Below are positions 3,930-38,697 of a DNA stretch of 38,697 nucleotides, piece after piece. The position numbers and the translations under genes are program-made. Positions within the stretch are counted from its first letter, which is position 1; every line of letters begins with the position of its first letter. The stretch spans positions 1 to 38,697 of the IMG/VR virus record IMGVR_UViG_3300045988_121486. One strand, given 5' to 3'. The notes below the pieces were generated by a model that worked only from the letters and a program-made list of their open reading frames with translations, ran no database searches and was not told the DNA's origin. This DNA is from a virus.

Positions 3930-4034
3930 ATGGAGAGAATCGACAGATTATATGCTCTGCTGGAGCGTGATGACATTGACGAGGACACCAAGGCGGCGCT
4001 GCGGTGGGCAATATTCGAACTGGAGAGGAAGTGA
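3930..4034 (+). CDS. Possible 34-aa small protein
   Basis: ATG 9 nt after AGGAAGGAGA. MERIDRLYALLERDDIDEDTKAALRWAIFELERK. Too short for the ORF track. Confidence 0.35.
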   Translation: MERIDRLYALLERDDIDEDTKAALRWAIFELERK

Positions 4035-4039
4035 AAAGG

Positions 4040-4333
4040 ATGCCGAAATCCAATTTCTTGAAAACAGAATCTGTGAGAATGAAATATGAAGCCAGGGCGC
4101 AGGCAGGCATCAGACGGTACATGTCACTGCGCCGGATCACGGACGATAAGATCGCGGCAAAGCAGAATGTGCAGGCAAGGACGATTCAAAACCGCATAAA
4201 GGATCCCGGATCTATGCAGTTAAGAGACCTGTGGGATCTGGCGGAGATCTTAGATGCTCCGGTGGGAGAACTGGCCGGCGGAGATCTGCCGGAGGAAATG
4301 ATGGCAAAGTTGATGCAAATGAAATTTGACTAA
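4040..4333 (+). CDS. HTH DNA-binding protein (XRE-like)
   Basis: IAAKQNVQARTIQNRIKDPGSMQLRDLWDLAEILDAPVGEL. Start is uncertain (4004, 4031 or 4040). Confidence 0.55.
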   Translation: MPKSNFLKTESVRMKYEARAQAGIRRYMSLRRITDDKIAAKQNVQARTIQNRIKDPGSMQLRDLWDLAEILDAPVGELAGGDLPEEMMAKLMQMKFD

Positions 4334-4345
4334 AGATTTTGTGCC

Positions 4346-4587
4346 GTGCCCTGTACGTGGTGTATTCCCAACACCACACTCCCCTTTTACACTTTTAGCG
4401 TGTGTGTCCAGGCTTCCACACCTGGGCACCACGTAGAGGGCATGGACAAACATAGATCACGCTTTGCGCGTGGTGTCTTATGACAGCACCACGTCCCCCG
4501 TAGACATGTCGCTCCTGCTATGGCGACATGGAACCTCTTTCGGTGTCCGGTAGATCAGCGCCGGGCACCACGCGGAGAGCGTGATCG
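4346..4587 (+). other. Structured non-coding region: two long inverted-repeat pairs built around CACCACG/CGTGGTG
   Basis: Arms 4347-4362/4427-4442 match 15 of 16. Arms 4455-4475/4567-4587 match 19 of 21. Inner hairpin CATGTCGC/GCGACATG at 4505-4530. GGGCACCACG occurs exactly twice. Confidence 0.6.
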
Positions 4588-4600
4588 GAAAGGGATAAAC

Positions 4601-4891
4601 ATGGAAATGATTAAGTATTGTGCCAAGGAAGTTGTGAAAAACAAAGACGGTCACAAATACTGGGAAGCCAGCAATTCGCAACTGGCCGGGTATGTCTATG
4701 ATGAAGTGAAGCAGTCAGTGCCGGAGGCGAAATATTATAACTTTGAAGGTTTACAGATCATTACAACGAATGACAAGCAGGAGCAGTCATTGCTGAGCAC
4801 GCTGGAAGTAATGGAGGACCTTTGTAATGAAAGGATAATCCAGATACATAGACTGAGAGATCAGATATACGGAGGGGCTACGGATGTATAA
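4601..4891 (+). CDS. Hypothetical protein
   Basis: Start at MEMIKYCAKE after GGAAAGGGA. The track ORF extension runs through the structured region. Confidence 0.5.
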   Translation: MEMIKYCAKEVVKNKDGHKYWEASNSQLAGYVYDEVKQSVPEAKYYNFEGLQIITTNDKQEQSLLSTLEVMEDLCNERIIQIHRLRDQIYGGATDV

Positions 4892-5210
4892 AAATATTGC
4901 GATATCACTCCTCGGAGCGTGGGTTTTGAGGGATGTTTTTGGGACAACAGAAGTAAGAGAGCAGATCGCCATAGTCATGGGTTTGGCGGCTATGCTTTTT
5001 ATTTTTTTGCTTTTTTGCGAGGATCAGCTGGAAAAATTGCAGAAAAAGCAGAAAAGGATCCGGGAACTGGAACGGAAACTGGAAGAATTGAAGGGAGGGA
5101 AAACGGATGAAAACAGAACAGTACTACATGGACAAGCTGTTGAAGATGGGGGACGAATTTACGAAAGCGGTGATCCGGAAGGACTGGTTTCAGGCGAAGT
5201 ATCTGTATGA
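4884..5210 (+). CDS. Hypothetical membrane and coiled-coil protein
   Basis: Two hydrophobic segments, then a KLQKKQKRIRELERKLEEL coiled coil. The 3' end overlaps the next gene by about 100 nt, so the true stop or frame is uncertain. Confidence 0.4.
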   Translation: MYKNIAISLLGAWVLRDVFGTTEVREQIAIVMGLAAMLFIFLLFCEDQLEKLQKKQKRIRELERKLEELKGGKTDENRTVLHGQAVEDGGRIYESGDPEGLVSGEVSV

Positions 5211-5641: not shown

Positions 5642-6439
5642 ATGGTAAAGCGAAAGAAAATGAGGTTAAGACATGGGGATGTCCTGGACGTGGGAGAGTA
5701 CCATGATGGCAATTATGGATCCCCAGGGAAGAGCAGACAGAAGAAGGAGAAGCCGACCAAGGAACAGGTGCGGCTGATAAATCAGAGGAACAAGGTCAGA
5801 AGATGTAGATGGAGACTGATCCAGTACTTTGATCAGGGAGATCTGTTTATCACATGGACCTATGAGGTCGGGAACCGTCCACCAGATATGGCAGGAGCAC
5901 TGAAGGACTTCCGGGCGGCAATCATCAAGATCCGGAAGATCTACCGGGCAAGGGGTATCCCACTCTACTGGATCAGGAACATAGAAAAGGGAACCAAGGG
6001 AGCCTGGCATATCCACCTTGTGATCAAGCAGACACCGGAGGGTAATGCGGCTGCTATCGTGACCAAGGCATGGACAAAGGGCGGCACCTACGTGGCAGAG
6101 ATCCGCAACAGCAAGTTTACCGGAGATGACATGGAGCAGCTGGCAGGGTATCTGACCAAGGACGAGCACACTGCAGAGCAACGGGCGGACGGTACACCAG
6201 GTAAACCAAGGATTGCAGAGTCTGCCTACAATACCAGTCGCAATATGCCGCTTCCAGAGCCTAAGACGGACAAGCTGGTCCGCTGGAAGCCGGAGGTGAA
6301 GCCACCCAAGGGATATTACATAGCCAGGATGCATGAGGGCATCAATTCGGTCACGGGATTTTTATACAGGAGTTACACACTGATCAGGTTAAAAACACAG
6401 GAGCGGAAGAAACCGCCGAACAGGGTAAGGAGGTGTTGA
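5642..6439 (+). CDS. HUH-superfamily rolling-circle replication initiator (Rep)
   Basis: The three RCR motifs appear in the canonical order: FITWTY (5846-5863), HIHLVI (6008-6025) and YLTK (6149-6160). Confidence 0.65.
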   Translation: MVKRKKMRLRHGDVLDVGEYHDGNYGSPGKSRQKKEKPTKEQVRLINQRNKVRRCRWRLIQYFDQGDLFITWTYEVGNRPPDMAGALKDFRAAIIKIRKIYRARGIPLYWIRNIEKGTKGAWHIHLVIKQTPEGNAAAIVTKAWTKGGTYVAEIRNSKFTGDDMEQLAGYLTKDEHTAEQRADGTPGKPRIAESAYNTSRNMPLPEPKTDKLVRWKPEVKPPKGYYIARMHEGINSVTGFLYRSYTLIRLKTQERKKPPNRVRRC

Positions 6440-6930
6440 TTTTGGAAAATGAATTGAAAGTAGTGGATATCTTTATAGGCACGACTCTCCGGGGATCTGC
6501 AAAGGGATCCGGACGGGTAATGTATATCATGAGGACCAAGCGCAAGAACGGCAGCGACTATGAAGCTGCTCCGCAGATCGCAGAGTATGACGATACCACG
6601 GAGAGCGCATCCGTCCTTTATGCTATCCGGGATGCACTGCAGCGTCTCAACTATGCCTGCACTGTGGTGATCCACACCGAGTGCAGCAATGTGGCAGCAG
6701 CCATACAGCAGCACTGGCCGCAGCACTGGCAACGGAACAATTGGAAGAGTGCCAAAGGAAACCCCGTAAAAAATGCAATCTTGTGGGAAATGCTCCTGCA
6801 GGAGGTTGAGGACGGTGGTCACATTCTGCTGGCGGAAAGCGAAAAACACGAATATGCAGAGTGGATGCGCTTTAATCTGCCGCTGAAACGGGCATTAAAA
6901 GACATTTTCACAGAAGTGCCAAAAAACTGA
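6433..6930 (+). CDS. RNase H-like fold protein with a degenerate active site
   Basis: WQRNNWKSAKGNPVKNAILWEML resembles the RNase HI WKKRGWKTADKKPVKN segment. By eye, the catalytic positions read FIGTT (not FTDGS), TTESASVL (not TTNNRMEL) and HTEC (not STDS). Start uncertain (6433-6442). Confidence 0.5.
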   Translation: MLILENELKVVDIFIGTTLRGSAKGSGRVMYIMRTKRKNGSDYEAAPQIAEYDDTTESASVLYAIRDALQRLNYACTVVIHTECSNVAAAIQQHWPQHWQRNNWKSAKGNPVKNAILWEMLLQEVEDGGHILLAESEKHEYAEWMRFNLPLKRALKDIFTEVPKN

Positions 6931-7095: not shown

Positions 7096-7620
7096 ATGGA
7101 GAAGAAATTTGGAATATTTAATACCGTAGAGGAGTTGAACAGGGCAGCAGCCGCCCAAAAGGCAGAGGGAGACCTGGAAGCGCTGATCGGACTGGCCACA
7201 GAGAACGGACTGGAGAAAGAGGATGCCGAGGACTACATGGACAGCGACGATGCAGAGGATACTCTGTGCAATGAGACAATGGCAGCAATCGGTAAGCTGA
7301 AACTGGAAGCAGAGGACCTGAAGCTGGAGAGCCAGATGAAGGACTGGAAAGATTTTGTGGTCCAGATGCTGATGGAATATCCGACACAGCACATGGAAGA
7401 GGACGGTGCAGCTTTGGCCAACGCCGTATTTAATCCGGATAAAAAACTTTTGAATGTGCTGGCAGCAGGACTGAAAATGGCATCAAAGAACCGGGTAACC
7501 ATAGATAGAAGGATCACAAAGGAAGCAGGATTGCCGGAGAGTGCTGGACAGATCGGAATGTGTGGCAGAGATGAACTGAAAAAGATCATCTTGGATTATT
7601 ACATGGGAGATAAAAAATGA
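7096..7620 (+). CDS. Acidic hypothetical protein
   Basis: Start at MEKKFGIF after GGAAAGGAG. Confidence 0.55.
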   Translation: MEKKFGIFNTVEELNRAAAAQKAEGDLEALIGLATENGLEKEDAEDYMDSDDAEDTLCNETMAAIGKLKLEAEDLKLESQMKDWKDFVVQMLMEYPTQHMEEDGAALANAVFNPDKKLLNVLAAGLKMASKNRVTIDRRITKEAGLPESAGQIGMCGRDELKKIILDYYMGDKK

Positions 7621-8207
7621 TCGTATACAAGGCAACAAACAATGACATGACCTGCACGATGGGACAGGGAACATTCCAGTATGAGTTGGGTGTACCGGCT
7701 ACGGCAGAAAAATCAAAGTGCGGCGATACCGGTCTCCATGCCTGCGAGTATGTACTTGACTGTACCGGCTACTACTCTCTGGGACGCGGAAGCAGGTTTT
7801 TCAAAGCAGCCGCAGTAGGAGATATTGCAGAGGACGGAACGAATACGCGTATCGCATGCACCAGACTGACACTGAAGAAAGAACTGGATAACCGCGACAT
7901 AGCCAGGGAAGCCATGCTGTACATGCTGCATCATCCACAGAGAAATGGGTGGCAGAAAAGCGGAAATATGCTGTGTGTCGCAGAACAGACAGCCGACATT
8001 AAAATACCGGATGGAATCGCAATAGCCAGAGGCAGTAGTCCAAGAGTAAGCGGATGCATCGGAGCCCACCTGGGACTGATCGCAGAACAGAACGGAAAGA
8101 TTGTCGCGGCAAAACTGTTTGATGTGGACGGAAAGAACATCCTGCCGGGCATCTGGTATACACTGGACACCCTGGCAGAAGCGGAGGAGAGGAGGCAGCA
8201 GGCATGA
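7617..8207 (+). CDS. Conserved phage/plasmid-type hypothetical protein
   Basis: 196 aa, translationally coupled (ATGA). The YKATNNDMTC...GLHACEY pattern recurs in mobile-element proteins of unknown function. Confidence 0.55.
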   Translation: MIVYKATNNDMTCTMGQGTFQYELGVPATAEKSKCGDTGLHACEYVLDCTGYYSLGRGSRFFKAAAVGDIAEDGTNTRIACTRLTLKKELDNRDIAREAMLYMLHHPQRNGWQKSGNMLCVAEQTADIKIPDGIAIARGSSPRVSGCIGAHLGLIAEQNGKIVAAKLFDVDGKNILPGIWYTLDTLAEAEERRQQA

Positions 8208-10324
8208 AGTGGAGAGAGATACTGAAAGCACCGTTGATACCACGGACAAAAAGAAGGAAGAAAGAAAACCAGATCACTTTTCAGGCGACGGACCAGTACC
8301 TGATCATGGACATCTGGAAAAATAAAGTAAATATCTGCCGGCACGCCGTAGACCGGAAAACATGGGAATACGGCACCTATTACGTCGGAACAGGCAAAAA
8401 AGAGCAGACCAATCTGACAAGTTGCACGGAAGGATTTGGAGGATGCTACTGGGGATCGGAACCGTGTGAGGGAGATTGGCTGGAAGAAAAACATGCAAAA
8501 GAACTGGAGAAGTTTGTCCCGATGCATGATTACAGTTGGATCAGCGATCCCTTGCGGAGGATATGTCGGATGGAAAAAGACTACAGTGCGGATAAGAGGG
8601 AACGTGCCAGAGACCGGAAAGAACAGAGAATCAGAGATCTCATGAATAAGTGTCCGAAGCCGGGACGCAGGGTATATGACTGGATCACTGAGAGACTGGT
8701 AGGAGATCTCCAGTATGCCTTTTATAACAAGCAGGACAAGACCTGCCATTGTACCGCATGCAACGGGGATTTTAAAGAAGAGGCAGCAGGCGCCCAGGTA
8801 AAACATCGTAAACAGATCAAATGTCCTCTCTGTGGCCATGACCTGACGGTGGAAAAAACAAGGGGAAGAATCCAAACAATCGGATGGCTGACGATGATCC
8901 ACGACGTGGACGAGAAGCAGGGAGTAGAGAGACATTTTAGGGTAACGGTGGACTGGCACAGAACAGGAAAGAGAGATACAGAGCTGGATGAACAGATCCG
9001 CCTGATGATGCTCCGCGGAGCAAAGGATTTTATGAAAATCTATTACTACTGTGATGTGTACTGGTGCGGATGGCACGACCACAATCCGCAAAACAGACGC
9101 TGGCATACATCCTACCTGTATCCAGATACGGAAGGAATCAAAGCCGGATTGAAGGATACTGCATACGAAGCCTGGTCAGATGTCATGCCGATGCTGGCAC
9201 AGATGGGGATTAAGGCATTTTATAACGGATTGCTGGTGGAAAGCAATGAACAATTTACCGGTATCGCGGAGTATATGGCAAAGGGACGCTTTTACCGTCT
9301 GCTGGATGAACTGTCACAGTGTATTACATACTGGAATGGGTATTCGGGGAGAACAATTGAAGTAAACGGTAAGTGCATGGAAGATATCTTACTGATAGAT
9401 GACAAGCAGCTGATCAACCGCCTGCGGCAGGAAAACGGCGGAATGCAGATGCTGCGTTGGATGCAGTGGTCAGAACTGGAAGAAAGAAAACTGTCGGCAG
9501 AATTTATCGCATGGACAGAAAAAAACAGAATTGATCCGGAGGACTATGATAAATCTATCGCCGGAGAATACATGTCACCGGAACAGCTGATGAATTACCT
9601 GAACCGGCAGAAGAAGGAATCGTATCCGGGAATGAAGATCAAGGATGTATGGAATCAGTACGAGGATTATCTGTCCATGTCACGAACGCTGGGAAAACAC
9701 ATGGATGATGCACTGGTACACCGCCCCAGGGAATTGAAGCGCCGGCACGATGAAGTGAATGCGGAAGTGGAACTGCACAGGGAAGAATTTGAAAGAAAAA
9801 GAAATGCGGAAATGGCAAGGAAGCAGGCGGAGGAGATGAGGAACAAGTATCCGGGATATGAGGATATCCTCTCCGAGATCAGCGAGAAGTTTGAGTATCA
9901 GAATGACACCTATTGTATTGTGGTTCCCAGGGACTTTATGGAGATTACGGCAGAGGGCATGGCACTGCATCACTGCGTCGGTAACACGGAGAGATATTTT
10001 GACCGGATTGTCAGCAGAGAGACCTATATCTGCTTCCTGCGGCAGCAGTCGTCCCCGGATAAGCCTTTTTACACGATAGAGGTGGAGCCGGGCGGTACCA
10101 TCCGCCAGCACCGGGGAGCCTACGACGAGGAGCCGGGCATAGAAGAGATCAAGCCGTTCCTGAGGGAGTGGCAGAAGGTGATCCGCAAGCGCATGAGCAG
10201 GCAGGATCATGAATATGCCGCACAGAGTGAGATCCTGCGGCAGAAGAACATAGAAGAACTGAAGGCAAAGAATAATACTGTGGTCCTGAAAGGACTGGCA
10301 GAAGATCTGATGGAGGTAATCTGA
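8204..10324 (+). CDS. PcfJ-like domain protein
   Basis: C-terminal AEGMALHHCVGNTERYFDRIVSRETYICFLR...FYTIEVEPGGTIRQHRG matches my recollection of the PcfJ-like signature. Confidence 0.65.
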   Translation: MKWREILKAPLIPRTKRRKKENQITFQATDQYLIMDIWKNKVNICRHAVDRKTWEYGTYYVGTGKKEQTNLTSCTEGFGGCYWGSEPCEGDWLEEKHAKELEKFVPMHDYSWISDPLRRICRMEKDYSADKRERARDRKEQRIRDLMNKCPKPGRRVYDWITERLVGDLQYAFYNKQDKTCHCTACNGDFKEEAAGAQVKHRKQIKCPLCGHDLTVEKTRGRIQTIGWLTMIHDVDEKQGVERHFRVTVDWHRTGKRDTELDEQIRLMMLRGAKDFMKIYYYCDVYWCGWHDHNPQNRRWHTSYLYPDTEGIKAGLKDTAYEAWSDVMPMLAQMGIKAFYNGLLVESNEQFTGIAEYMAKGRFYRLLDELSQCITYWNGYSGRTIEVNGKCMEDILLIDDKQLINRLRQENGGMQMLRWMQWSELEERKLSAEFIAWTEKNRIDPEDYDKSIAGEYMSPEQLMNYLNRQKKESYPGMKIKDVWNQYEDYLSMSRTLGKHMDDALVHRPRELKRRHDEVNAEVELHREEFERKRNAEMARKQAEEMRNKYPGYEDILSEISEKFEYQNDTYCIVVPRDFMEITAEGMALHHCVGNTERYFDRIVSRETYICFLRQQSSPDKPFYTIEVEPGGTIRQHRGAYDEEPGIEEIKPFLREWQKVIRKRMSRQDHEYAAQSEILRQKNIEELKAKNNTVVLKGLAEDLMEVI

Positions 10325-12751: not shown

Positions 12752-12917
12752 GCTGCGAAAAGATGAAGATGATGTACAGCCGGGAGATGTCCTGATCTTA
12801 ATGGAGTGGGAAAACGGAGAATACACTGGCCGGACAGAAGTACGCAGGATCCGGTATGTGCTCCGGGATGTACCGGAATATGGACTGATGCAGGGTTACT
12901 GTATCATCGGATGGTAA
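12681..12917 (+). CDS. ASCH/DUF3850-like small protein
   Basis: KILPQYFQAVREEKKNFELRKDEDDVQPGDVLILMEW...YTGR pattern. Confidence 0.7.
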   Translation: MKTIEKKILPQYFQAVREEKKNFELRKDEDDVQPGDVLILMEWENGEYTGRTEVRRIRYVLRDVPEYGLMQGYCIIGW

Positions 12918-12931
12918 AGGAGGCAGCAGGG

Positions 12932-13435
12932 ATGGAATTACAGGAACTTACAAATAAAGTACTGAGATTATTTGATGCGAAGACAACCGAAGATCTGCCA
13001 GAGAAATTGCTGGCTGCAGTTCAAAATAATGATGAGACAGTGTATGAAAAATTTTGTGAGAATGTAAAAGATTTGAGCATCGACTGGTTACAAATGATTT
13101 TTCAGTATTACCATGCAGATAGAACGGAAAAAATGCAGGATTATACACCTAAGAGCTTAGCTGTGTTTATGGGAAAACTTGCAGGAAAATCAGATATAGT
13201 TACAGATATGTGCGCTGGATCAGGGGCATTGACAATTCAAAAATGGAATATGGACAAGAACCAAAAATTTGAATTATATGAATATGACAGCAAGGTAATG
13301 CCATTTCTACTGTTCAATATGGCAGTTAGAAATATTGAATGTAAAGTATATCATTCAGATGTATTGAAACAGGAAGTATTTCACACATACAAAATCGCAA
13401 GAGGAAAAAAATTCGGGAGATTTACGGAAATATGA
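12932..13435 (+). CDS. N6-adenine DNA methyltransferase, N-terminal part (AdoMet motif I only)
   Basis: DMCAGSGAL motif I and downstream YHSDVL, but no NPPY before the stop. Confidence 0.75.
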   Translation: MELQELTNKVLRLFDAKTTEDLPEKLLAAVQNNDETVYEKFCENVKDLSIDWLQMIFQYYHADRTEKMQDYTPKSLAVFMGKLAGKSDIVTDMCAGSGALTIQKWNMDKNQKFELYEYDSKVMPFLLFNMAVRNIECKVYHSDVLKQEVFHTYKIARGKKFGRFTEI

Positions 13436-14442
13436 AAATGAAGAAAACATTAATATCAAATCCACCGTATAACATGAAATGGGAAATACCGCCATTCGCA
13501 CAGATACAACCACGATTTTCTAAATGTTATGTAGTGCCACCTGCAAATAATGCGAATTATGCATTTGTACTAACAGGACTGGAAAAACATGACAGGTGTG
13601 TTTTCCTTCTGCCAGCCGCTATAATGAGCAGCAATCAAAAGGAGGAAAAGGCAATAAGAGAATGGTTAGTAGAGGAAAACCTGGTAGAAGCGGTGATTAT
13701 CTGCCCGGACAACATGTTTGAGTCCACTGGGGTGGGAACCTGTATTATTGTTTTGGACAAAAACAAAGAACATGTAACCACGGAAATGATAGACATTAGG
13801 AATAGATATGTAGAGGAAATCAGAGATCAAAAAGGGCAATATGGTGGAACCTCTCATACTAACAGAATCTATCAGAAAAAAATAAAGGTTATTCCGGAAA
13901 AAATAATGGAAGATGTGCTGGATGCAATCAGGGAAAGAAAAAGTATTCCTGATTTTTGCAAATCAGTAAGCATTGAAAAAATAAAAGAGGATAAATATTC
14001 TCTTTTGGCGAGTCACTATCTCGATATACAGGAAGAGGAAGTAAAGCATAGGAGCTATGAAGATATAGTAGAGGACCTAAACAGGGTGGTGAGAGAAAAA
14101 AACGCATGCAAGCTCACAATCAATGAAAGTCTGGCAAAAGGAATGGGATTCGATATCGAAATGTACAAAAATGATCAGCAAGATACAGGACTCAATGAAA
14201 TGCTTGTAAAATTGGGAGCACCACAGCTTGAAAAAGATAATTATTTTTCAACATCAAAGAATAAAAACGAAATCCGATTTGAGAACAACAGCAAAGATAT
14301 TCTGTCAAGCATCTTGGTGATGATTATGCAGACATGGAAACAGCACATATATTACCTGAATCAGCAAGAAAATAGATATTTGGCTGAATTGCGGGATGCA
14401 CTGATTCCGGATCTGATGAGTGGAAAAATTGATGTAACTTAG
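13432..14442 (+). CDS. N6-adenine DNA methyltransferase, C-terminal part (NPPY catalytic motif plus putative target-recognition region)
   Basis: Begins MKMKKTLISNPPYN. The frame is open from 13345 and is -1 relative to the upstream part. Confidence 0.75.
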   Translation: MKMKKTLISNPPYNMKWEIPPFAQIQPRFSKCYVVPPANNANYAFVLTGLEKHDRCVFLLPAAIMSSNQKEEKAIREWLVEENLVEAVIICPDNMFESTGVGTCIIVLDKNKEHVTTEMIDIRNRYVEEIRDQKGQYGGTSHTNRIYQKKIKVIPEKIMEDVLDAIRERKSIPDFCKSVSIEKIKEDKYSLLASHYLDIQEEEVKHRSYEDIVEDLNRVVREKNACKLTINESLAKGMGFDIEMYKNDQQDTGLNEMLVKLGAPQLEKDNYFSTSKNKNEIRFENNSKDILSSILVMIMQTWKQHIYYLNQQENRYLAELRDALIPDLMSGKIDVT

Positions 14443-14789: not shown

Positions 14790-15467
14790 ATGGATTTTGG
14801 ATATTACAACATGGATTGCATGGATGGGATGAAAGAGTTCCCGGATGGTTACTTTGACCTTGCGATTGTGGATCCACCGTATGGGATTGGAGAAAATGGG
14901 GATAAAAACCATACAAGAGGTAAACTGGCAAAAGCAAAGGATTACAAGAGTTTTAGCGGAATGGATATAAATCCACCAAACGAAAAATATTTCGATGAAC
15001 TGTTTAGAGTGTCAAAAAATCAGATTATTTTTGGGGCAAATCATTTTATAAGCAAAATGCCGTTTGATAGTAGTTGTTGGATTGTTTGGGATAAAGATAA
15101 TGGAAATACTGATTTTGCTGATTGTGAACTTGCATGGACTTCGTTCAGTACTGCAGTAAGGAGGATTAAATATAGGTGGAATGGAATGCTTCAGCAAAAT
15201 ATGAAACACAAAGAAAACCGTATTCATCCCACACAAAAACCTGTGGCACTATATGAATGGCTTCTGAACCGCTATGCAAAGCCCGGAGACATTATCCTAG
15301 ACACACATGTAGGCAGTGCCAGCAGCTTGATAGCCTGCTACAGAACCAACCATCCATATGTTGGCTTTGAACTGGACAAGCATTATTATGATTTGTCCAA
15401 AAAGAGATTAGATGCAGAAATGGCACAAATGCGATTATCTGATTTTATGCCGGGGGTGATGCCATGA
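14790..15467 (+). CDS. Beta-class DNA methyltransferase (N6-adenine/N4-cytosine family, DPPY)
   Basis: IVDPPYGIGE, then HPTQKP and LDTHVGSASS. This is the circularly permuted order typical of the N6_N4 methylase family. Confidence 0.88.
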   Translation: MDFGYYNMDCMDGMKEFPDGYFDLAIVDPPYGIGENGDKNHTRGKLAKAKDYKSFSGMDINPPNEKYFDELFRVSKNQIIFGANHFISKMPFDSSCWIVWDKDNGNTDFADCELAWTSFSTAVRRIKYRWNGMLQQNMKHKENRIHPTQKPVALYEWLLNRYAKPGDIILDTHVGSASSLIACYRTNHPYVGFELDKHYYDLSKKRLDAEMAQMRLSDFMPGVMP

Positions 15468-16756: not shown

Positions 16757-17758
16757 ATGACAAAGACAGACCTGATCAACGACATTGCATTTGAAATGAG
16801 TAACATTTTGACGCCGGAACAGATTGACAAGGTAAAGATAATATTTTTGGTAAAGATGCAGGACTTTGATCTTGCCGAGACCAGACAGCTTCCGATGGTG
16901 GAAGAACATGACAATGAATGGCTTATGAAGCGATACTGGATCGATGGGGCGGCAGTAGGCCTGAAGGAATCAACCATGCGGGGATATCTTGGAAGAATAA
17001 AAGAGTTCTTCGATTTCACGGGAAAAAATTATAAGTATATTACAGCACAGGACATAACAGATTTCCTTGCTATCAAAGCATACCGTGATCATATCAGCCA
17101 GAATTATAAGTCTACGCTATACCGGTACCTCTGCACATTTTTCGGCTGGGCTTTCCGGAAAAAGCATATCGTTGATAATATTGCAGATGGAGTGGACAAG
17201 GTAAAGCAGATTCAGGCACAAAAGAAGCGGTTGACAGATGAAGAGGTGGAAGATATCCGTGATGTATTGGATACACCAAAGGAAAAAGCACTGTTTGAAC
17301 TGATGCTTTGCACCGGCATGAGAGTAGGCGAAATATCCAATCTCAATATTTCGGATCTGGATCTGACGCACAGGACTGTCAACATCTGGGGAGAGAAGAG
17401 CAATAAATATCGCACCGGTATGTTGACACCTAAAGCAGTAAAAGCATTGCGGAATTATATCGGTGGGCGTCCTGGGACAGACCCTGTATTTTTGGCTGAC
17501 AGGGCGCCTCATAATCGTATGCGGGAGTACGGCATCGAGAAGCTGACCAAGGAAATGGCAGTCCGCGGTGGTGTGACGCGGTTGACGGCAACGGTCCATA
17601 TATACCGCAAGACCTTTGCGTCCGTCCTGTACCGTAAGACAGGGGATGTGATGCTGGTAAGTAAGCTCCTCGGACATTCCAACCCAGAGATTACAGTAAA
17701 ATATTATCTGGTAGATGATATCGAGGAGATGCAGAACAAATACAACAAAGTGGCATAA
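16757..17758 (+). CDS. Second tyrosine recombinase (XerC/D-like or Rci-like), internal to the prophage
   Basis: GMRVGEI (Arg I), HIYRKTFAS (HxxR), LLGHSN and VKYY (Tyr). 333 aa. Confidence 0.85.
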   Translation: MTKTDLINDIAFEMSNILTPEQIDKVKIIFLVKMQDFDLAETRQLPMVEEHDNEWLMKRYWIDGAAVGLKESTMRGYLGRIKEFFDFTGKNYKYITAQDITDFLAIKAYRDHISQNYKSTLYRYLCTFFGWAFRKKHIVDNIADGVDKVKQIQAQKKRLTDEEVEDIRDVLDTPKEKALFELMLCTGMRVGEISNLNISDLDLTHRTVNIWGEKSNKYRTGMLTPKAVKALRNYIGGRPGTDPVFLADRAPHNRMREYGIEKLTKEMAVRGGVTRLTATVHIYRKTFASVLYRKTGDVMLVSKLLGHSNPEITVKYYLVDDIEEMQNKYNKVA

Positions 17759-18364: not shown

Positions 18365-18856
18365 ATGGCAAAAGGCAAATATGAGTATTGGCTGACACCG
18401 GAAGGCTTGCTAAAGCTGGAAGGATGGGCAAGAGATGGATTAACAGATGAGCAGATTGCTACAAATATGGGAATTCGCAGAGAAACGTTATATGCATGGT
18501 GTAAAAAGTATACTAACATTTCTAACACCCTAAAAAGGGGAAAGGAAGTAGTTGATAGAGAAATAGAACGGGCTCTATATAATAATGCGGCTGGATACAA
18601 TTATACTGAAAAGGTTATATGTACGAAAAAAGAAGTCCTATATGAAAATGGCAAGAGAATCAAGGAAACGGTAGAACCGGTAGTTGTCGAAGTAGAGAAA
18701 CATAAACCCGGAGAAACCACAGCCCAGATATTCTGGTTAAAGAACCGGAAACCGGATAAATGGAGAGACAAACAGGATGTCCAGATCTCCGGAGAGCTTA
18801 AATCCGAACAGAGTAAACTGGATGACCTGATCAGACAGATGCGTGGTGATGGGTAA
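18365..18856 (+). CDS. terS: Terminase small subunit
   Basis: HTH LTDEQIATNMGIRRETLYAWCKKY and FWLKNRKPDKWRDK. Precedes terL. Confidence 0.85.
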   Translation: MAKGKYEYWLTPEGLLKLEGWARDGLTDEQIATNMGIRRETLYAWCKKYTNISNTLKRGKEVVDREIERALYNNAAGYNYTEKVICTKKEVLYENGKRIKETVEPVVVEVEKHKPGETTAQIFWLKNRKPDKWRDKQDVQISGELKSEQSKLDDLIRQMRGDG

Positions 18857-20229
18857 TGAGCGCAAGTAAACTCCTGCTGTCAGAGAAATACAAAGCATTC
18901 CTGAAATGCGATGCTCCGGTGGAATTTCTGGAAGGAACCACGGCAGCAGGTAAGACGACGGTAGGAATCTTCAAGTTTATGCTTAAGGTGGCAGAAAGCC
19001 CCAAGAAGCTTCACATCATTGCTGCAGATGATACCGGTACCGCAGAGAAGAATATCATCAACAAGGATCTGGGCATACTGGATGATTTTGGTATTTTGGT
19101 GGAGTATAACGGCAGTGGTACAAAGGATGATAAGATTCCACATCTGCTTTTCCATACTGCCGGGGGAGATAAAGTCATATATGTGCTGGGTTACGGTAAC
19201 AAGAAAAAGTGGAAGAAGGCCCTGGGTGGACAATATGGCTGTCTGTACATAGATGAAGTAAATACCGCAGACATAGATTTTGTCAGAGAAGCATCCATGC
19301 GATGTGATTATCTGATGGCAACACTGAACCCGGATGATCCGGGATTGCCGGTGTACAAAGAATATATCAACTGTGCACGTCCTCTTCCGGAATGGAAGGA
19401 TGAGACACCGCAGGAAATCATAGAGGAACTGAAAGAAGAGCCAAAGGACGGATGGATCCATTGGTTCTTTTCTTTTAAAGACAATGCAGGCCTTCCACCG
19501 GATAAGCTGCAGATGATCCTGCAAAACACACCGAAGGGTACCAAAATTTGGAAAAACAAGATTCAAGGTCTCCGCGGAAAAGCGACAGGGTTGGTATTCT
19601 CCAACTTTGTCAGAAAGAAGCATGTTGTTACTGCTGCGTGGGTGAAGAAACAGATTGCAGATGGGAATATCCGTTTCAGGAAGTTTACAGCAGGACTGGA
19701 TACATCATATTCCTCAAAATCTCCGGATACTATTGCAATGATCTTCCAGGGCATTACGGATGACCGCAAGCTGATCACACTGGCTGAGAAGGTATATAGC
19801 AATGCGGATCTCAGTGTGCCGCTGGCTCCTTCTGACACAGCGGTAAAGTTTATAGCTTTTCTGGATAGATGCAGATCGGAATGGGGATTTGCAAAAGAGT
19901 CTTTTATTGACTGCGCAGATGCGGCGACAATAACAGAACTTCGGAAGTATAAGCGCCTGCATGGGTGCCTTTATAATTTCATTGAGTCCTACAAGAAGGT
20001 AACAATACTGGACCGTATCAATTTACAACTGGGATGGATCCAGCAGGACTGCTATCTGGTAGTTGAGGATTGTACAAACCATATCTCGGAATTGGAACGC
20101 TATTCATGGGACGAGGAAGAGGATGTTCCGGTACCGGAGGATAAGAACGACCATACGATCAATGCAAACCAGTACGGATGGATTCCATACCGGAATATGA
20201 TTGGATTCGAGGAGGATAAACAGAGGTGA
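18856..20229 (+). CDS. terL: Terminase large subunit
   Basis: Walker A GTTAAGKTT and Walker B LYIDEVN. 457 aa. Confidence 0.9.
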   Translation: MSASKLLLSEKYKAFLKCDAPVEFLEGTTAAGKTTVGIFKFMLKVAESPKKLHIIAADDTGTAEKNIINKDLGILDDFGILVEYNGSGTKDDKIPHLLFHTAGGDKVIYVLGYGNKKKWKKALGGQYGCLYIDEVNTADIDFVREASMRCDYLMATLNPDDPGLPVYKEYINCARPLPEWKDETPQEIIEELKEEPKDGWIHWFFSFKDNAGLPPDKLQMILQNTPKGTKIWKNKIQGLRGKATGLVFSNFVRKKHVVTAAWVKKQIADGNIRFRKFTAGLDTSYSSKSPDTIAMIFQGITDDRKLITLAEKVYSNADLSVPLAPSDTAVKFIAFLDRCRSEWGFAKESFIDCADAATITELRKYKRLHGCLYNFIESYKKVTILDRINLQLGWIQQDCYLVVEDCTNHISELERYSWDEEEDVPVPEDKNDHTINANQYGWIPYRNMIGFEEDKQR

Positions 20230-34217: not shown

Positions 34218-34907
34218 ATGGCAGCACCGGAGGGATACAAGACTCTCGGAAAAATCGGAATATCTTACAAAGGAGATTACAACTCTAATATTGCATATGA
34301 GCGTTTGGATGCGGTATATCACAATGGCAGTACATATTTGGCAATTAAAGATGCACCGGATGGAGCACCGAGGGATGATAAGCTCAACTGGATCTATTTG
34401 GCCAAGGGATTTAGTGGAGACATCGGATACTCAGAAATCGCGTTTACTGAGGCGGAGAACCGCGAGAACATTAATACGGGCGAGAGCGTAAAGACGGTCT
34501 TTGGCAAGATTAAAAAGTTTTTTGCAGACTTGACCGCACCGGCCTTTGCGCAGATGATCACATCCAAGGATGATCTGCTGGCCACCAAAGCCACCGGCTA
34601 TGTCCCGGATGCCAAGGCGGTGGCAGATGCGGTTACTGATGTAACTGGCAAGTTAGGTAAGTATAAATTATCTACGTGTGGATTCTTTTCCATTGATCTA
34701 GTTGTTGGATCAAATATAGTTTCAGTGGATAAGTTAGTGTCTGGTAGTTTGCCTCAAACACCATATACTCTATTCACCGTTATATCACAAGGAACGTCTT
34801 TAAATAGGTTAATAGATATATTTTTTGATGGTGGTAATAATGTAGTGGCATATACAAATGTAGCTCAAAGATATAGCATAATGTGGGTGTCTTTCGAATT
34901 GACTTAA
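34218..34907 (+). CDS. Tail fibre / receptor-binding protein: constant N-terminus (to GKL, 34655) plus currently attached C-terminal cassette A
   Basis: N-terminal YKGDYNSNIAYERLDAVYHNGSTYLAIKD fibre-like pattern. Composition becomes AT-rich exactly after 34655. Confidence 0.75.
   Translation: MAAPEGYKTLGKIGISYKGDYNSNIAYERLDAVYHNGSTYLAIKDAPDGAPRDDKLNWIYLAKGFSGDIGYSEIAFTEAENRENINTGESVKTVFGKIKKFFADLTAPAFAQMITSKDDLLATKATGYVPDAKAVADAVTDVTGKLGKYKLSTCGFFSIDLVVGSNIVSVDKLVSGSLPQTPYTLFTVISQGTSLNRLIDIFFDGGNNVVAYTNVAQRYSIMWVSFELT
34642..34655 (+). repeat. Crossover-like site S1, TAACTGGCAAGTTA (encodes TGKL)
   Basis: 14-mer identical to 37980-37993. The 10-nt core TGGCAAGTTA is shared with all four sites. 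Confidence 0.8.
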
Positions 34908-35593
34908 GTACTAAATAAAGCCTTGGTAAGTGTAATATAACCTCCAACATTGGTGCTATCAGTAGCTGAATATGAAAACAATTGTAATCGCAAATAATGG
35001 TTTCCACTTAAAGAACTACAATTATATGATGTGTTTATTGTGTATGTTGTTTTCTCCTTATCATAATTCGGATGAGCATATAAAGTAGTAACTTCAACTC
35101 CAGAAGCATTTAACAACTTAACTTTAGGTCGATAATCATCAGAACCATAAGGATTACCTGTTACTTTATAAGATGATCCCTGCAAAGTTAAAGTTTTAAA
35201 ACTAGATAAGTTGATTGCTGGAGAAGTATAATACACATAAGAACTCATTCCGGTTTGTGATGCGATTTTTAGTGTAACAGCACTACCATTAGAGGAAGCA
35301 CTTGGCGTAATAGCTCCTCCAGCAGTACCAACCGTCCACCCACTTCTTATCAAAGAATAAGTAGCAGGATTTTGTGATGCTACAACAGCTATTAATTGGT
35401 TAAATGTCATATTGGCGTTTACTAATCCGCTTGGTTTTAAAGCATTATATAGTGCAGCCGCATACGATGCCTCACTGCTAAAAGGGATAACTGTATCTGC
35501 ACCTGCCGGATTCGTAATAATGTAGCCATATTCTCCGTTAGAATTCACGCCGAATCTAAAAGGAACATTATCTGAGGCAATTAACTTGCCATT
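34904..35593 (-). CDS. Start-less alternative tail-fibre C-terminal cassette B (NGKL-IASDNVPFRFGVNSNGEYGY...)
   Basis: 229 codons open from the core. In-frame TGA at 35606-35608. No ATG or SD. The track's GTG at 35548 lies inside a continuous sequence. Shares TTAA stops with cassette A. Confidence 0.65.
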   Translation of the reverse strand, partial: NGKLIASDNVPFRFGVNSNGEYGYIITNPAGADTVIPFSSEASYAAALYNALKPSGLVNANMTFNQLIAVVASQNPATYSLIRSGWTVGTAGGAITPSASSNGSAVTLKIASQTGMSSYVYYTSPAINLSSFKTLTLQGSSYKVTGNPYGSDDYRPKVKLLNASGVEVTTLYAHPNYDKEKTTYTINTSYNCSSLSGNHYLRLQLFSYSATDSTNVGGYITLTKALFST

Positions 35594-35595
35594 TA
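35582..35595 (-). repeat. Crossover-like site S2, TAAATGGCAAGTTA (minus sense)
   Basis: Inverted relative to S1 and read as NGKL. Confidence 0.8.
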
Positions 35596-35649
35596 GTGTA
35601 GTAGATCAGACGGCGGGTGCAGCCGTAAGAGCACCAGAAAGGAGCCCTC

Positions 35650-36165
35650 ATGGGTTACATAAAGTTTAAAAATAAAAAGACCGTATCAAAGGTCATCGTA
35701 TCAGAGGAGAGCCCTCATGTGATCCGCATCACCGGAGACGGCCTCACAATAAATACTGACGGCTTCCGGCTCTATCTGGATGAGGGATGCAAATACCCGC
35801 TGGACAACGGCGAGTATGAGGCATACACTACTTTATTCCGGGAGGGCGACGGCTGGTATGAGTTGTCCGATGACGGATCCGTCTACACCGAGCCGATTGC
35901 ACCGGTGCAACCTGAGCCCACAGAAGAGGAGCTTACGGAGTTGGGCAGACAGCAGCAGATCAGTCAGCTGACTGCGCAGATCGATGACCTCAAGGCCAGA
36001 ATCGCCGCCAGTGACTATAAGGTTATCAAGACCTATGAGTATACTCTCCTCGGTGAGCAGACCGAGTATGATATGGAGGCTGTCCATGCAGAGAGACAGG
36101 CTCTCCGGGATCAGATCAATACATTGGAGACACAACTGGCAGATCTGACCGCAACCGCAGAGTAG
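35650..36165 (+). CDS. Hypothetical tail/lysis-junction protein with a coiled-coil C-terminus
   Basis: 171 aa with SD AAAGGAG. Contains palindrome copy F in its linker. Confidence 0.55.
   Translation: MGYIKFKNKKTVSKVIVSEESPHVIRITGDGLTINTDGFRLYLDEGCKYPLDNGEYEAYTTLFREGDGWYELSDDGSVYTEPIAPVQPEPTEEELTELGRQQQISQLTAQIDDLKARIAASDYKVIKTYEYTLLGEQTEYDMEAVHAERQALRDQINTLETQLADLTATAE
35897..35910. repeat. Dispersed palindrome TTGCACCGGTGCAA, copy F (inside coding sequence, encodes IAPVQP)
   Basis: Exact 14-mer. Confidence 0.9.
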
Positions 36166-36281
36166 GAGGCTGCTTATGAGAGTGAGAGACGGTCCTTAAA
36201 CAATAAAACATAGTAACCAAGAGCCAAGAGCCGATTACTTCCTTCAGGAGGTGACCGGCTCATTATATTAAGGAGACTGAG

Positions 36282-36527
36282 ATGGCAACAGAAATCATTG
36301 TGGCACTGATCGGCTGCGCGGGAAGTGCGGCAGGCGCCTTCTGCGGAATTCTGGTCAATACAAAATTGACTACATATCGGTTGGAGCAGCTCGAAAAAAA
36401 GGTGGATAAGCATAACACAGTCATAGAACGCACATTCAAGCTAGAAGAAGCGCAGGCAGTTATGCAGGAACAAATTAAAGTAGCAAATCACAGAATTGAA
36501 GATTTGGAAAGAGAGGTAAAAGAATGA
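36282..36527 (+). CDS. Small membrane and coiled-coil protein (lysis accessory, XhlA-like?)
   Basis: N-terminal TM segment followed by a coiled coil. Precedes the holin. Confidence 0.45.
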   Translation: MATEIIVALIGCAGSAAGAFCGILVNTKLTTYRLEQLEKKVDKHNTVIERTFKLEEAQAVMQEQIKVANHRIEDLEREVKE

Positions 36528-36862
36528 GCACAAGTACAATCATGGTAATTATTTTGGCAGTGCTGACGGCACTGGTAGTAGGAACATTTTTATGGGTATA
36601 CATCCGCGATAAGACGATTGATGAGATCAGAGTGGATGTGTATCACCTGTTTCTGAAGGCAGAACATGCATTTAAAGAGTCGGGTTCCGGAAAGCAGAAG
36701 ATGAAGTATGTAGTAAGTCAGGCAAGAAAACTGTTGCCTTCATGGCTGCAGTATTTTGTCACTGATGAGTTCTTAGAAAGCGTTATAGAAAAGTGGTTCC
36801 AGGCAGTGAAGGATCTGCTGGATGACGGCAAGCTGAATGGATCAGAGGAGGAAGAAGAATGA
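36524..36862 (+). CDS. Holin (LL-H-like)
   Basis: N-terminal TM IMVIILAVLTALVVGTFLWVYI, then a GSGKQKMKYV pattern. Directly upstream of the endolysin. Confidence 0.65.
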   Translation: MSTSTIMVIILAVLTALVVGTFLWVYIRDKTIDEIRVDVYHLFLKAEHAFKESGSGKQKMKYVVSQARKLLPSWLQYFVTDEFLESVIEKWFQAVKDLLDDGKLNGSEEEEE

Positions 36863-37869
36863 AAAAGGCATTATCAAAAGGACCGGATATTTCCAAACAC
36901 AATGGAAATGTTAATATCAAAAAAGTGCGTGATGCCGGATATAAGCCTATAGGTATTCGGGCTGGTTACGGAAAAAATAACGTCGACGAGAAGTATGTGA
37001 GCAATGCATTGGCCTGCTTTAATCTGGCTGTGCAGGTGCTGCTCTACTGGTTTTCATATGCCTACACCGCAGCAATGGCAGTGGCAGAGGCAGAGTTTTG
37101 TATCACTCAGGCTAAAAAGTACTGGAGCAAATGCCCTATTGCATTTGATTTTGAGTACGACTCTGTAAATTATGCGCGTAAGAGAGGCGTGAATGTCACA
37201 AAACAGCTGGCTACAGATATGGCAATTGCATTTTTGCAAAAGGTCAAAGCAGCCGGTTATCTCCCGGTGATCTATACCAACAAAGATTACCTTAATAAAT
37301 ATTTTGACATGAACCGGATCGTAAAAGCACTGGGAAAGGTATACGTATGGTATGCACGCTATACGTCCAGTCTGTCAGCGGCGGAGATTGACCTTGCGGA
37401 TATTTGGCAGTATACATCATCAGGATCTGTCCCTGGAATAAGTGGCAAGTGTGATATCAATATCTTTTATACGGACTTTGAAATGGTATCAGTACCGGCG
37501 CAAAGAGAAGAAACCTGTAATATTAATATTCAGAACTTCCAGAAAGCTGCAAATGCAGACGGTTATCGGGATGAGCAGGGAAGAAAGCTGGCTGAAGATG
37601 GCAAAGATGGCAAGAATACTCGGTATGTAAAACAGCAGATCTGCCTGCAGGCGAAGAGATTCGGGCTGAGCTACAAGGTTGGCTCCAGGGGAGCGGTAGT
37701 TAAGTGGTGGCAGACACGTTGCAATGAGATCTTAGGACATGACCAGAACGTAGATGGTAAGTATGGAAAAGACGCAAGGAAAGAGACCATTGCAGTGCAG
37801 GACAAGCTGAACCTGGTAAAAGATGGAAAAGTAGGATACGACAGTATCCAGGCGGCATTCTATAATTGA
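36859..37869 (+). CDS. Endolysin: GH25 muramidase plus C-terminal peptidoglycan-binding repeat
   Basis: GPDISKHNGNVN...GIRAGYG...FDFEYD...WQYTSSGSVPGISGKCDINIFY. C-terminal VDGKYGKDARKETIAVQ. Confidence 0.9.
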   Translation: MKKALSKGPDISKHNGNVNIKKVRDAGYKPIGIRAGYGKNNVDEKYVSNALACFNLAVQVLLYWFSYAYTAAMAVAEAEFCITQAKKYWSKCPIAFDFEYDSVNYARKRGVNVTKQLATDMAIAFLQKVKAAGYLPVIYTNKDYLNKYFDMNRIVKALGKVYVWYARYTSSLSAAEIDLADIWQYTSSGSVPGISGKCDINIFYTDFEMVSVPAQREETCNINIQNFQKAANADGYRDEQGRKLAEDGKDGKNTRYVKQQICLQAKRFGLSYKVGSRGAVVKWWQTRCNEILGHDQNVDGKYGKDARKETIAVQDKLNLVKDGKVGYDSIQAAFYN

Positions 37870-37937
37870 CGGATCAGCAGAAGGTATGATACTCTAAAAT
37901 TACCCATTGAATCCTTCTCATGGTTTATCATGGGAAA

Positions 37938-37976
37938 AGAGTGGCGAACAAGAAGGGGTGTTCGCCACTCTTTTTA
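37938..37976 (+). terminator. Strong intrinsic terminator after the endolysin
   Basis: Perfect 13-bp stem AGAGTGGCGAACA/TGTTCGCCACTCT followed by a T-run. Confidence 0.85.
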
Positions 37977-37979
37977 TAT

Positions 37980-37993
37980 TAACTGGCAAGTTA
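37980..37993 (+). repeat. Crossover-like site S3, TAACTGGCAAGTTA
   Basis: Identical to S1. Starts 4 nt after the terminator T-run. Confidence 0.8.
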
Positions 37994-38317
37994 GAGACTA
38001 AAGAAGAATTTGTCAATGAAGGCACTATTGTTTCTAAAACCGGTAACCATGTGACATTGAATGGATCACAATATATTCAGAGTGTTACATACACGATCCC
38101 AGGTTGGGGAACTTTAAAAATAGGTACAATGTCCAAGCAATATGTTCCATCAAGAGCATTGGTTTTTTACACTCAGGTTAGGAATTCTGATACATCGAGA
38201 ATCTATTACATCGGCATTATTATAAGTATCAATGGAGATATTTCATTATATAATGCTGCGTCTGATGTGGAAATCACATTCTCGCAGATTGGTTTTTCAT
38301 TTGGCTGGGACGTGTAA
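37982..38317 (+). CDS. Start-less silent tail-fibre C-terminal cassette C (TGKL-ETKEEFVNEG...GWDV)
   Basis: In frame with GKL. The only upstream start candidate (TTG 37907) has no SD and would be translated through the terminator hairpin. Confidence 0.6.
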   Translation, partial: TGKLETKEEFVNEGTIVSKTGNHVTLNGSQYIQSVTYTIPGWGTLKIGTMSKQYVPSRALVFYTQVRNSDTSRIYYIGIIISINGDISLYNAASDVEITFSQIGFSFGWDV

Positions 38318-38320
38318 ATT

Positions 38321-38581
38321 TTAATTTTTACGGCAAATAAATTCTATAGTAGCCTGTTCGGTGACTGCACGTGAGGATATTGTAATAACTCCAACATAGT
38401 TGCTGTTATTGTCATAATTACAAAATATTAGATCCGCATGTGGGAAATTAGTGTATCCGTTTACTGCAATTACAGTGTATCCATCAGGTATTTCTGGTGC
38501 ATTAAAATATCCAATTTTTAGGGTTGTATCAAAATCAACAGTTGGATCAATTTTAATAATTTTTAATTCTAACTTGCCATT
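38321..38581 (-). CDS. Start-less silent tail-fibre C-terminal cassette D (NGKL-ELKIIKIDPTVDF...CRKN)
   Basis: 86 codons open from the core. In-frame TAA 5 codons upstream. No ATG. Not in the ORF track for that reason. Confidence 0.6.
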   Translation of the reverse strand, partial: NGKLELKIIKIDPTVDFDTTLKIGYFNAPEIPDGYTVIAVNGYTNFPHADLIFCNYDNNSNYVGVITISSRAVTEQATIEFICRKN

Positions 38582-38583
38582 TA
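38570..38583 (-). repeat. Crossover-like site S4, TAAATGGCAAGTTA (minus sense)
   Basis: 14-mer identical to S2 and inverted relative to S1 and S3. Confidence 0.8.
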
Positions 38584-38671: not shown

Positions 38672-38697
38672 AAGCGCGAGACGGGGATCGAACCCGC
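38672..38697 (-). tRNA. 3' end of a tRNA gene (T-arm plus acceptor strand) continuing beyond the window; right att core
   Basis: Minus sense GCGGG-TTCGATC-CCCGT-CTCGCGC-T. The anticodon is outside the window, so the identity is unknown. Confidence 0.7.

Follow-up and report, generated by a model that had tools for sequence, protein, structure and literature searches.

A probable multi-site inversion system at the 3' end of a tail-fibre gene in a Lachnospiraceae prophage

The 38,697-nt stretch of viral DNA analysed here at its full length (IMG/VR record IMGVR_UViG_3300045988_121486, hereafter the window) carries a prophage of ~38.5 kb that lies on a 124-kb gut-metagenome scaffold in ENA and whose host belongs to the genus Waltera, family Lachnospiraceae. 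The 3' end of the tail-fibre/receptor-binding gene of this prophage is very probably rewritten by a multi-site inversion system (a shufflon), as suggested by four copies of a short site in alternating orientation, by the open cassettes that adjoin them and by related loci in which the same segments lie flipped. A first-pass annotation, made from the letters of the window, had drawn attention to one invertible-looking segment at 34218-35608, with two alternative C-termini converging between inverted cores. The system is larger than that annotation described and includes a second module (sites S3 and S4, cassettes C and D), an invertible lysis cassette and two tyrosine recombinases.

Results

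Four alternating sites, each leading into an open cassette

Read from the constant 5' part of the fibre gene (const), the locus has the order const - S1(+) - A> - <B - S2(-) - [orf171, XhlA-like gene, holin, GH25 endolysin, terminator] - S3(+) - C> - <D - S4(-) - ~90 bp - tRNA-Gly (attR), with sites and cassettes placed as follows.

34218-34655, plus strand: constant 5' part of the tail-fibre/receptor-binding gene, 146 aa, ending ...ADAVTDVTGKL, with a strong ribosome-binding site (RBS) and an ATG
34642-34655, plus strand: site S1, TAAC/TGGCAA/GTTA = TAACTGGCAAGTTA, the putative crossover site within the expressed gene
34656-34907, plus strand: cassette A, 83 aa and a stop, the current expressed C-terminus of the fibre
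34904-35581, minus strand: cassette B, 225 aa and a stop, silent, without a start codon or RBS of its own
35582-35595, minus strand: site S2, TAAATGGCAAGTTA in the minus-strand reading
35596-37979, plus strand: S2-S3 segment, which also has inverted sites at its two ends
37980-37993, plus strand: site S3, TAACTGGCAAGTTA, beyond the endolysin gene
37994-38317, plus strand: cassette C, 107 aa and a stop, silent, beginning TGKL-ETKEEF..., without a start codon or RBS
38321-38569, minus strand: cassette D, 82 aa and a stop, silent, beginning NGKL-ELKIIK..., without a start codon or RBS
38570-38583, minus strand: site S4, TAAATGGCAAGTTA in the minus-strand reading, ~90 bp from the prophage end

As assembled, the open reading frame (ORF) of the fibre is 229 aa long (34218-34907), and cassette A is the only one now fused to the constant part. 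Each of the four sites is followed by an in-frame, AT-rich frame of 82-225 codons that is entered through (T/N)GKL and has no start codon of its own; the GC content of the cassettes is 0.32-0.36 (0.33 in A and 0.36 in B), compared to 0.48 in the constant part.

What the first-pass annotation had reported on the first pair of sites proved accurate. The core TAACTGGCAAGTTA does lie at 34642-34655 and encodes (V)TGKL, and its inverted copy at 35582-35595, TAAATGGCAAGTTA on the minus strand, matches it at 13 of 14 bases (10 exact), with 926 nt between the arms. The minus-strand frame of 229 codons (NGKL plus 225 aa) extends from 35593 to a stop at 34906-34904; the in-frame TGA is present upstream at 35608-35606, and the GTG at 35548, the first possible start, falls in the middle of the motif FRFG-V-NSNGEYGY. 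The two converging frames overlap in a shared TTAA (34904-34907), and the turn in base composition at the core is likewise there, from a GC content of ~0.50 to 0.30-0.35 at 34650 and back up near 35600.

The 14-nt S1/S2 repeat is at chance level as a lone inverted repeat, being among 23 comparable pairs within 3 kb, and we dismissed it as significant by itself. The pair rises above chance because the window contains four copies of the 10-mer TGGCAAGTTA, where 0.08 are expected and where none of 100 shuffles reached four. These four copies form two inverted pairs, 34642(+)/35582(-) and 37980(+)/38570(-).

In the model that we favour, any two sites of opposite orientation could undergo conservative site-specific recombination, which would invert the intervening DNA. 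Recombination of S1 with S2 would exchange tip A for tip B, that of S3 with S4 would flip the C/D module, and that of S2 with S3 would flip the lysis cassette, while recombination of S1 with S4 followed by further flips would bring C or D to the constant part. The promoterless cassettes would be translated only when joined to S1, such that one genome could give rise to four fibres with different distal domains, presumably to change adsorption specificity. The enzyme would be a XerD-like recombinase encoded at 16757-17758 and acting at a distance, or else a recombinase supplied in trans. Several Lachnospiraceae phage lineages use the same site and a common pool of ~60 tip families, and cassettes are thus also exchanged between phages.

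It is very improbable that the minus-strand frame is an ordinary stand-alone gene (for a second fibre protein or a chaperone) that starts at GTG 35548 and lies next to a coincidental repeat. Gene callers do annotate it as such (214 aa in L081; database cluster P0147, with 44 contigs) and the lone inverted repeat is at chance level, as noted above; yet both the open frame and its conservation extend past the GTG all the way back to the core, the frame has no RBS, the tip with its pre-GTG residues is fused via NGKL to many N-termini, and one relative (L199, see below) joins the constant part to B. Two gene-caller artefacts can be traced to the silent cassettes: the 214-aa ORF (34904-35548, minus strand, in L081) is cassette B read from GTG 35548, and a 136-aa ORF from TTG 37907 (37907-38317, plus strand) is a read-through of the terminator into cassette C. 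These ORFs have been propagated in cluster P0147 and in cluster P0126 (46 members).

Related loci carry the segments in flipped orientation

For comparison we used 80 IMG/VR loci, ten further assemblies and 27 metagenome contigs, and the two-module architecture recurred in most of ~90 related loci. The constant part has 1724 homologues; among the 120 listed, identity over the matched region is 63-100% (95-100% in many) and dozens of unrelated tips start exactly after GKL. One such homologue, P0021, is joined to the cassette C that is silent in the window, junctions of the constant part with C at the core are also seen in L082, L440 and L447, and the A/B pair is located at the second locus in L193 and L064.

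The in-frame exchange of an 83-aa for a 225-aa tip that the first-pass annotation had predicted exists as a natural fusion. In L199 the constant part is joined to B, and A lies silent on the opposite strand: nt 3993-4946 of this locus correspond to the window from 35595 to 34642 in reverse (954 bp, 99.79% identical), and the 2412 bp beyond the flipped segment are collinear with the window at 99.96%. Flipped segments, for which the same annotation had suggested looking among related prophages, are carried not only by L199 but also by members of three near-isogenic pairs, within which the flipped inter-core segment is the sole difference.

L022/L031: upstream 8911 bp at 99.94%, inverted 578 bp at 100%, downstream 3550 bp at 99.94%
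L190/L198: upstream 4327 bp at 99.98%, inverted 633 bp at 99.68%, downstream 2416 bp at 99.92%
L005/L017: upstream 3992 bp at 99.98%, inverted 627 bp at 99.36%, downstream 1033 bp at 99.90%

The breakpoints of homology coincide with the cores. In addition, eight of the 80 contigs terminate 11-49 codons past S1, which is the pattern that mixed orientations would give in an assembly graph and may be taken as an indirect sign of them.

Strand exchange maps to a 6-bp spacer

The sites conform to the consensus TAAM-TGGCAA-KTTA in the alternating orientation + - + -, those of the window being TAAMTGGCAAKTTA. In 1.02 Mb of fibre loci there are 152 copies of the 14-mer, as against none in 1.86 Mb made up of three other sets of phage loci that were fetched; the ten copies found in a fourth set of 1.44 Mb come from material that includes contigs already known to bear the shufflon. 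Conservation is limited to these 14 bp, as the cassette side is unrelated between sites and the other side is kept only within a positional class. The GKL codons are always GGCAAGTTA (GGC-AAG-TTA; 30 of 30), and the constraint or selection therefore acts on the DNA and not on the protein.

Two variable positions within the site behave differently. The base at position 4, A or C, remains linked to the outer flank: it is A in 67 of 67 S2 flanks, every common tip occurs with both variants, and the flipped lysis segment of L068 has taken its C along. The G or T at position 11 remains linked to the cassette, whatever the flank class. Since position 4 tracks the flank and position 11 tracks the cassette, crossover falls within positions 5-10, and these sequence comparisons thus place strand exchange inside a 6-bp asymmetric spacer, TGGCAA, between 4-bp inverted arms, TAAM/KTTA. 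Judged by its sequence, such a site looks typical of a tyrosine recombinase and unlike the 2-bp core of a serine invertase. Other spacers are TGATAA (L027), TAGCAA (L032) and TAGGAA (L076 and L072), and the TGATAA and TAGGAA versions are uniform across all copies within a genome. For tyrosine recombinases, as in Cre/lox, FLP/FRT and Xer/dif, partner sites have to match in the overlap region, and uniform spacers within a genome would be the pattern expected from this rule.

The same anatomy bears on a serine-invertase system of the Gin/Cin/Min type with its invertase outside the window, which we hold to be highly unlikely. The logic would be that of Mu, P1 and p15B, and the core is partly dyad-symmetric around a central GC; on the other hand, linkage puts the exchange within a 6-bp spacer, three positions of which vary, and not at a 2-bp core, the conserved site measures 14 bp and is not a 26-bp gix-type site, and no resolvase or invertase was found in the window or within 10 kb of the shufflon in ~90 loci. 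The first-pass annotation had likewise noted the lack of a serine invertase: Pfam scans of the main ORFs of the window (most of those of at least 100 aa) revealed none, and a six-frame tblastn search of the window with Hin and Gin gave no match at E up to 1.

A point-mutated core, TGGCAATTTA, which reads GNL, is present in L015, L016, L021 and L193-L198 (for example at 10425-10438 of L015) and goes with an 81-aa tip that is very common (NGLKFASISTS...) and with a few others. Where TGGCAATTTA stands at S1 and faces normal sites, the tip may be locked; L198 has the mutated core at both module-2 sites, and its second module might be insulated in this way.

Do these sites still recombine, or are cassettes and cores the relics of modular exchange at a conserved linker, in a prophage that no longer switches today? 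Two findings weigh against in-situ inversion as the whole explanation: every orientation difference is between assemblies from separate samples, so that the evidence is all comparative, and the flanks are often less alike than the cassettes. Part of the diversity must therefore come from exchange between phages rather than from flipping in place. A frozen mosaic would accommodate both findings as well as cores such as TGGCAATTTA that may lock a tip. Nevertheless, we consider it unlikely, because near-isogenic pairs that differ solely by a flip point to recent events, all four cassettes have kept an open frame in register with their sites, the 14-mer shows no change even where it would be synonymous, assemblies break right past S1, and the four sites of the window are intact and share one spacer. 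An active shufflon remains the reading that we prefer.

A candidate invertase encoded at a distance

The window encodes two tyrosine recombinases.

16757-17758, plus strand: candidate invertase, a 333-aa XerA/C/D-like two-domain tyrosine recombinase (Pfam PF00589, 4e-30)
211-1461, minus strand: prophage integrase, a 416-aa divergent tyrosine recombinase at the other prophage end, less likely to be the invertase

The candidate gene lies just upstream of those for a RinA-like regulator and the terminase, ~17 kb upstream of the shufflon. Its product has a complete set of catalytic residues (R, K, HxxR, H and Y) and scores below all NCBIfam family cut-offs, with best matches to XerA, XerC and XerD that span the core-binding and catalytic domains. 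Among capsid-anchored relatives with both regions covered, recombinase and shufflon are both present in 28 and both missing from 15, a single relative has the shufflon without the recombinase and the converse is never seen, an association that is confounded by phylogeny. From these sequence features we give about even chances to the proposal that the XerD-like product of 16757-17758 is the shufflon invertase, acting at a distance.

A number of loci speak against this assignment. L159 bears the shufflon and has no recombinase at the usual place, where the L040/L424 phage has a mere 30-aa recombinase remnant, and no recombinase was found within 10 kb on either side of the shufflon in ~90 loci. 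Contig 3300045988_109573, from a second lineage with the same kind of shufflon, was searched by tblastn and by motif over 59 of its 66 kb, and neither a tyrosine nor a serine recombinase came up, a soft negative in that the motif search misses divergent integrases (its control missed the integrase). All of this would fit real sites at which inversion is catalysed in trans, by a recombinase of the host or of a co-resident prophage or by the integrase of 211-1461, and to such a trans-acting enzyme, a serious contender at somewhat under even odds, we assign most of the remaining probability. The occurrence of the same core in phage lineages with unrelated head and tail modules would suit a shared trans-acting enzyme, and one has been proposed for a bifidophage inversion that lacks an adjacent recombinase (PMC6109161). 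What favours the candidate of 16757-17758 over an enzyme in trans is its co-occurrence with the shufflon in its own phage group, though confounded as stated, its being an intact armless XerD-like enzyme, the architecture reported for the Rin shufflon (see below), and the lack of another evident role for a second recombinase in an integrated prophage.

The remnant in L424 (18577-18666) is of the L120 recombinase type and is followed by a gene for a ParA-like ATPase (18712-19773). We also considered whether recombinase and spacer co-vary, as L120/L027 combine a recombinase of 27% identity with TGATAA, and rejected the idea: it is undercut by L424/L040, where a remnant of the same type goes with the GGC spacer, and it is unconvincing because spacer variants need no new enzyme.

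The lysis cassette is invertible as well

The segment between the oppositely oriented sites S2 and S3 holds the whole lysis cassette.

35650-36165: orf171, 171 aa, in the S2-S3 segment
36282-36527: XhlA-like gene (Pfam)
36524-36862: holin (Pfam)
36859-37869: GH25 endolysin (Pfam)
37939-37975: terminator hairpin, its T-run ending 4 nt before S3

In L068 and L075, two of ~70 related contigs, the lysis segment is inverted exactly from S2 to S3, and L067 and L068 share 1736 bp that are 99.94% identical and reversed, beginning at S2. Lysis genes in the inverted orientation would be antisense to late transcription and may represent a reversible lysis-defective state. The lysis module is 99.9-100% identical where the prophage tail genes are only ~80% identical (L190 and L199), and the exact 171-aa protein of orf171 is indexed in 3805 blocks of a public assembly collection; by these sequence identities the module is either highly mobile or under strong conservation. 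A direct repeat, CAGARRGGAGCCCTCATG (RBS and ATG), stands at 35635-35652 and 35702-35719 where orf171 begins, and this gene may have two in-frame starts. A scan of promoters and terminators gave counts no better than chance.

Fibre tips and their likely function

Upstream of the fibre gene lie, in this order, the tape measure gene, a Dit-like DUF6711 gene, a Tal-like gene and a 233-aa gene, and the lysis genes follow directly after it. The constant part has a weak PHROG tail-fibre match (phrog_5073, 4.5e-6). In some relatives (L149, 19878-20858 and 18799-19866; L192, L194 and L197) the fibre genes encode collagen-like Gly-X-Y repeats upstream of the KIKKFFADLTAPAFAQMI...NGKL junction, and some of these relatives also have a collagen-like version of the upstream 233-aa gene. 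From synteny, the PHROG match and the collagen-like variants, switching of receptor-binding specificity is the likely role of the tip swap. It counts against this role that it is read from position and weak matches, with Pfam blank and an AlphaFold model of the constant part plus A that reaches a mean confidence (pLDDT) of 51.7. Tip structures had been proposed as a check by the first-pass annotation, and for this one the outcome is mixed: the model suggests a helix up to GKL followed by an all-beta tip, but is too poor for a fold search.

Tip B is joined through NGKL (or NGHL or NGRL) to at least eight unrelated N-terminal regions of 45-345 aa and is itself 75-99% identical among the proteins examined, and the sequences fetched contained ~60 tip families by our count. 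Because the cassettes are low in GC and more alike than their flanks, these sequences indicate that cassettes also move between phages at the sites. In the comparison of L190 with L198 (nt 7349-7941), two lysogens, prophage and host flanks are 99.9% identical and the module-2 cassette pairs are entirely different, which implies replacement of the whole module between cores and not flipping alone. A diversity-generating retroelement was dropped as an explanation, as variation is by whole cassettes and the scan of ORFs revealed no reverse transcriptase.

Other features of the prophage

The integration site lies at the end of the window.

38673-38697, minus strand: 3' part of tRNA-Gly(GCC), cut by the window end (L081, 10456-10527)

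A scan of GTDB genomes returned a single locus, in Waltera acetigignens. Against 50,697 GenBank phage records the window gave no DNA match and three weak protein matches only. The early region encodes a Rep initiator (ORF2/G2P-like, 5642-6439), an RNase H-like ORF (6433-6930) and a 706-aa PcfJ-like protein (8204-10324), a replication module that is unusual for a siphovirus-type prophage. An N6 DNA methylase extends over two overlapping ORFs (12806-13435 and 13432-14442), either by a frameshift or as a two-part enzyme, and is followed by a further N6/N4 methylase (14790-15467).

Discussion

The closest known parallel is the Rin shufflon of Bifidobacterium breve and B. longum prophages (Mavrich et al. 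2018, PMC6109161), also reported in Eggerthella lenta prophages (PMC8778435), in which a predicted armless XerD-like tyrosine invertase goes together with 11-bp rix sites and with a constant N-terminus of the receptor-binding protein that is joined to variable C-termini of 95-100 aa (PMC6109161, PMC8778435). Akin to Rin, the present system resides in a temperate siphovirus-type prophage of a Gram-positive gut bacterium, couples a constant receptor-binding N-terminus to several dissimilar C-terminal cassettes (mostly of ~80-110 aa) by a short asymmetric repeat before each cassette (11 bp in Rin, 14 bp here), and has a prophage-encoded armless XerD-like tyrosine recombinase, separate from the integrase, as the predicted enzyme, a likeness that is one of architecture. 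In both cases the evidence is mainly comparative, though Rin also has variant reads. The differences are no less clear: the rix site TTCCCTAACCC has no match in the window with up to one mismatch; the Rin invertase flanks its cassettes, whereas none lies within 10 kb in ~90 loci here and the candidate is 17 kb upstream; two convergent pairs sit astride the whole lysis cassette, which is hence invertible too; one site and cassette pool is common to several phage lineages; and the hosts belong to Bacillota (Lachnospiraceae) and not to Actinomycetota. For want of a rix motif and of a recombinase next to the cassettes, membership in Rin is thus not supported. Still, the present system is less unprecedented than it might seem, because Rin is already described as a tyrosine-recombinase tail-fibre shufflon of actinobacterial gut prophages.

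The likeness to Mu G, P1 C and the shufflons that the first-pass annotation had invoked holds at the level of logic. Gin, Cin, Pin and Min, all from Gram-negative hosts, rely on an adjacent serine invertase, on 26-bp sites with crossover at a 2-bp core and on an enhancer that depends on Fis. As in p15B Min, Gin (Mu), Cin (P1) and Pin (e14), alternative 3' fibre parts are chosen for a constant 5' part by inversion at short sites, and with p15B Min there is the further likeness of several sites, many arrangements, and sites and cassettes common to related phages; in contrast to all four, none of the features just listed, an adjacent serine invertase included, was found here, the conserved site has 14 bp and exchange occurs in a 6-bp spacer. 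The R64/IncI1 shufflon (Rci, pilV) resembles the present one in its multiple tyrosine-recombinase inversions, in sites conserved on one side and in the spacer, and in the in-frame swap of adhesin C-termini, the R64 adhesin setting recipient specificity. Its sfx sites are longer and not known to be related in sequence, and its target is the conjugative pilus tip protein pilV on a plasmid with rci adjacent, as opposed to a phage tail module beside lysis genes.

A second inversion in bifidophages spans ~500 bp between 8-bp repeats, CAGGGTTA, and has no adjacent recombinase, its enzyme having been proposed only 'in trans' (PMC6109161). With convergent dissimilar 3' segments, a very short repeat and no neighbouring recombinase, it looks exactly as 34218-35608 does when taken alone; the repeat and proteins are different, and that case is a single module. 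Generic surveys of programmed inversions exist (PMC9881135). A literature search of incomplete coverage found no description of this system in Lachnospiraceae, and there may be an earlier one. New here are the host clade, the site, the two convergent modules astride the lysis cassette, the remote or trans-acting enzyme, and a site and cassette pool common to several lineages.

One may go further and regard the 14-bp site as a common currency for a guild of Lachnospiraceae phages, with at least eight N-terminal types, unrelated virion modules and a pool of at least ~60 cassettes, in which exchange between genomes would proceed by the same reaction with a trans-capable recombinase, and in which lysis would also be phase-variable and the prophage reversibly parked in a non-lytic state. 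We offer this only as a tentative proposal that is more likely wrong than right.

The phage group is very common, with one protein in 3805 blocks of the assembly collection, yet has no relative among GenBank phages. Switching of fibre tips is textbook knowledge in coliphages and is barely documented for temperate phages of the dominant gut Firmicutes. A four-state switch together with ~60 tip families would explain why assemblies fragment at the fibre gene, the switch would also explain the spurious 214-aa and 136-aa 'genes', and host-range prediction from a single assembled fibre allele would be unreliable. An invertible lysis cassette would be an unexpected side effect of this arrangement. 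The 14-bp site is compact and, perhaps along with a small recombinase, could be tried out as a tool, and the tips would constitute a natural library of receptor-binding domains for the surface structures of Waltera and other Lachnospiraceae.

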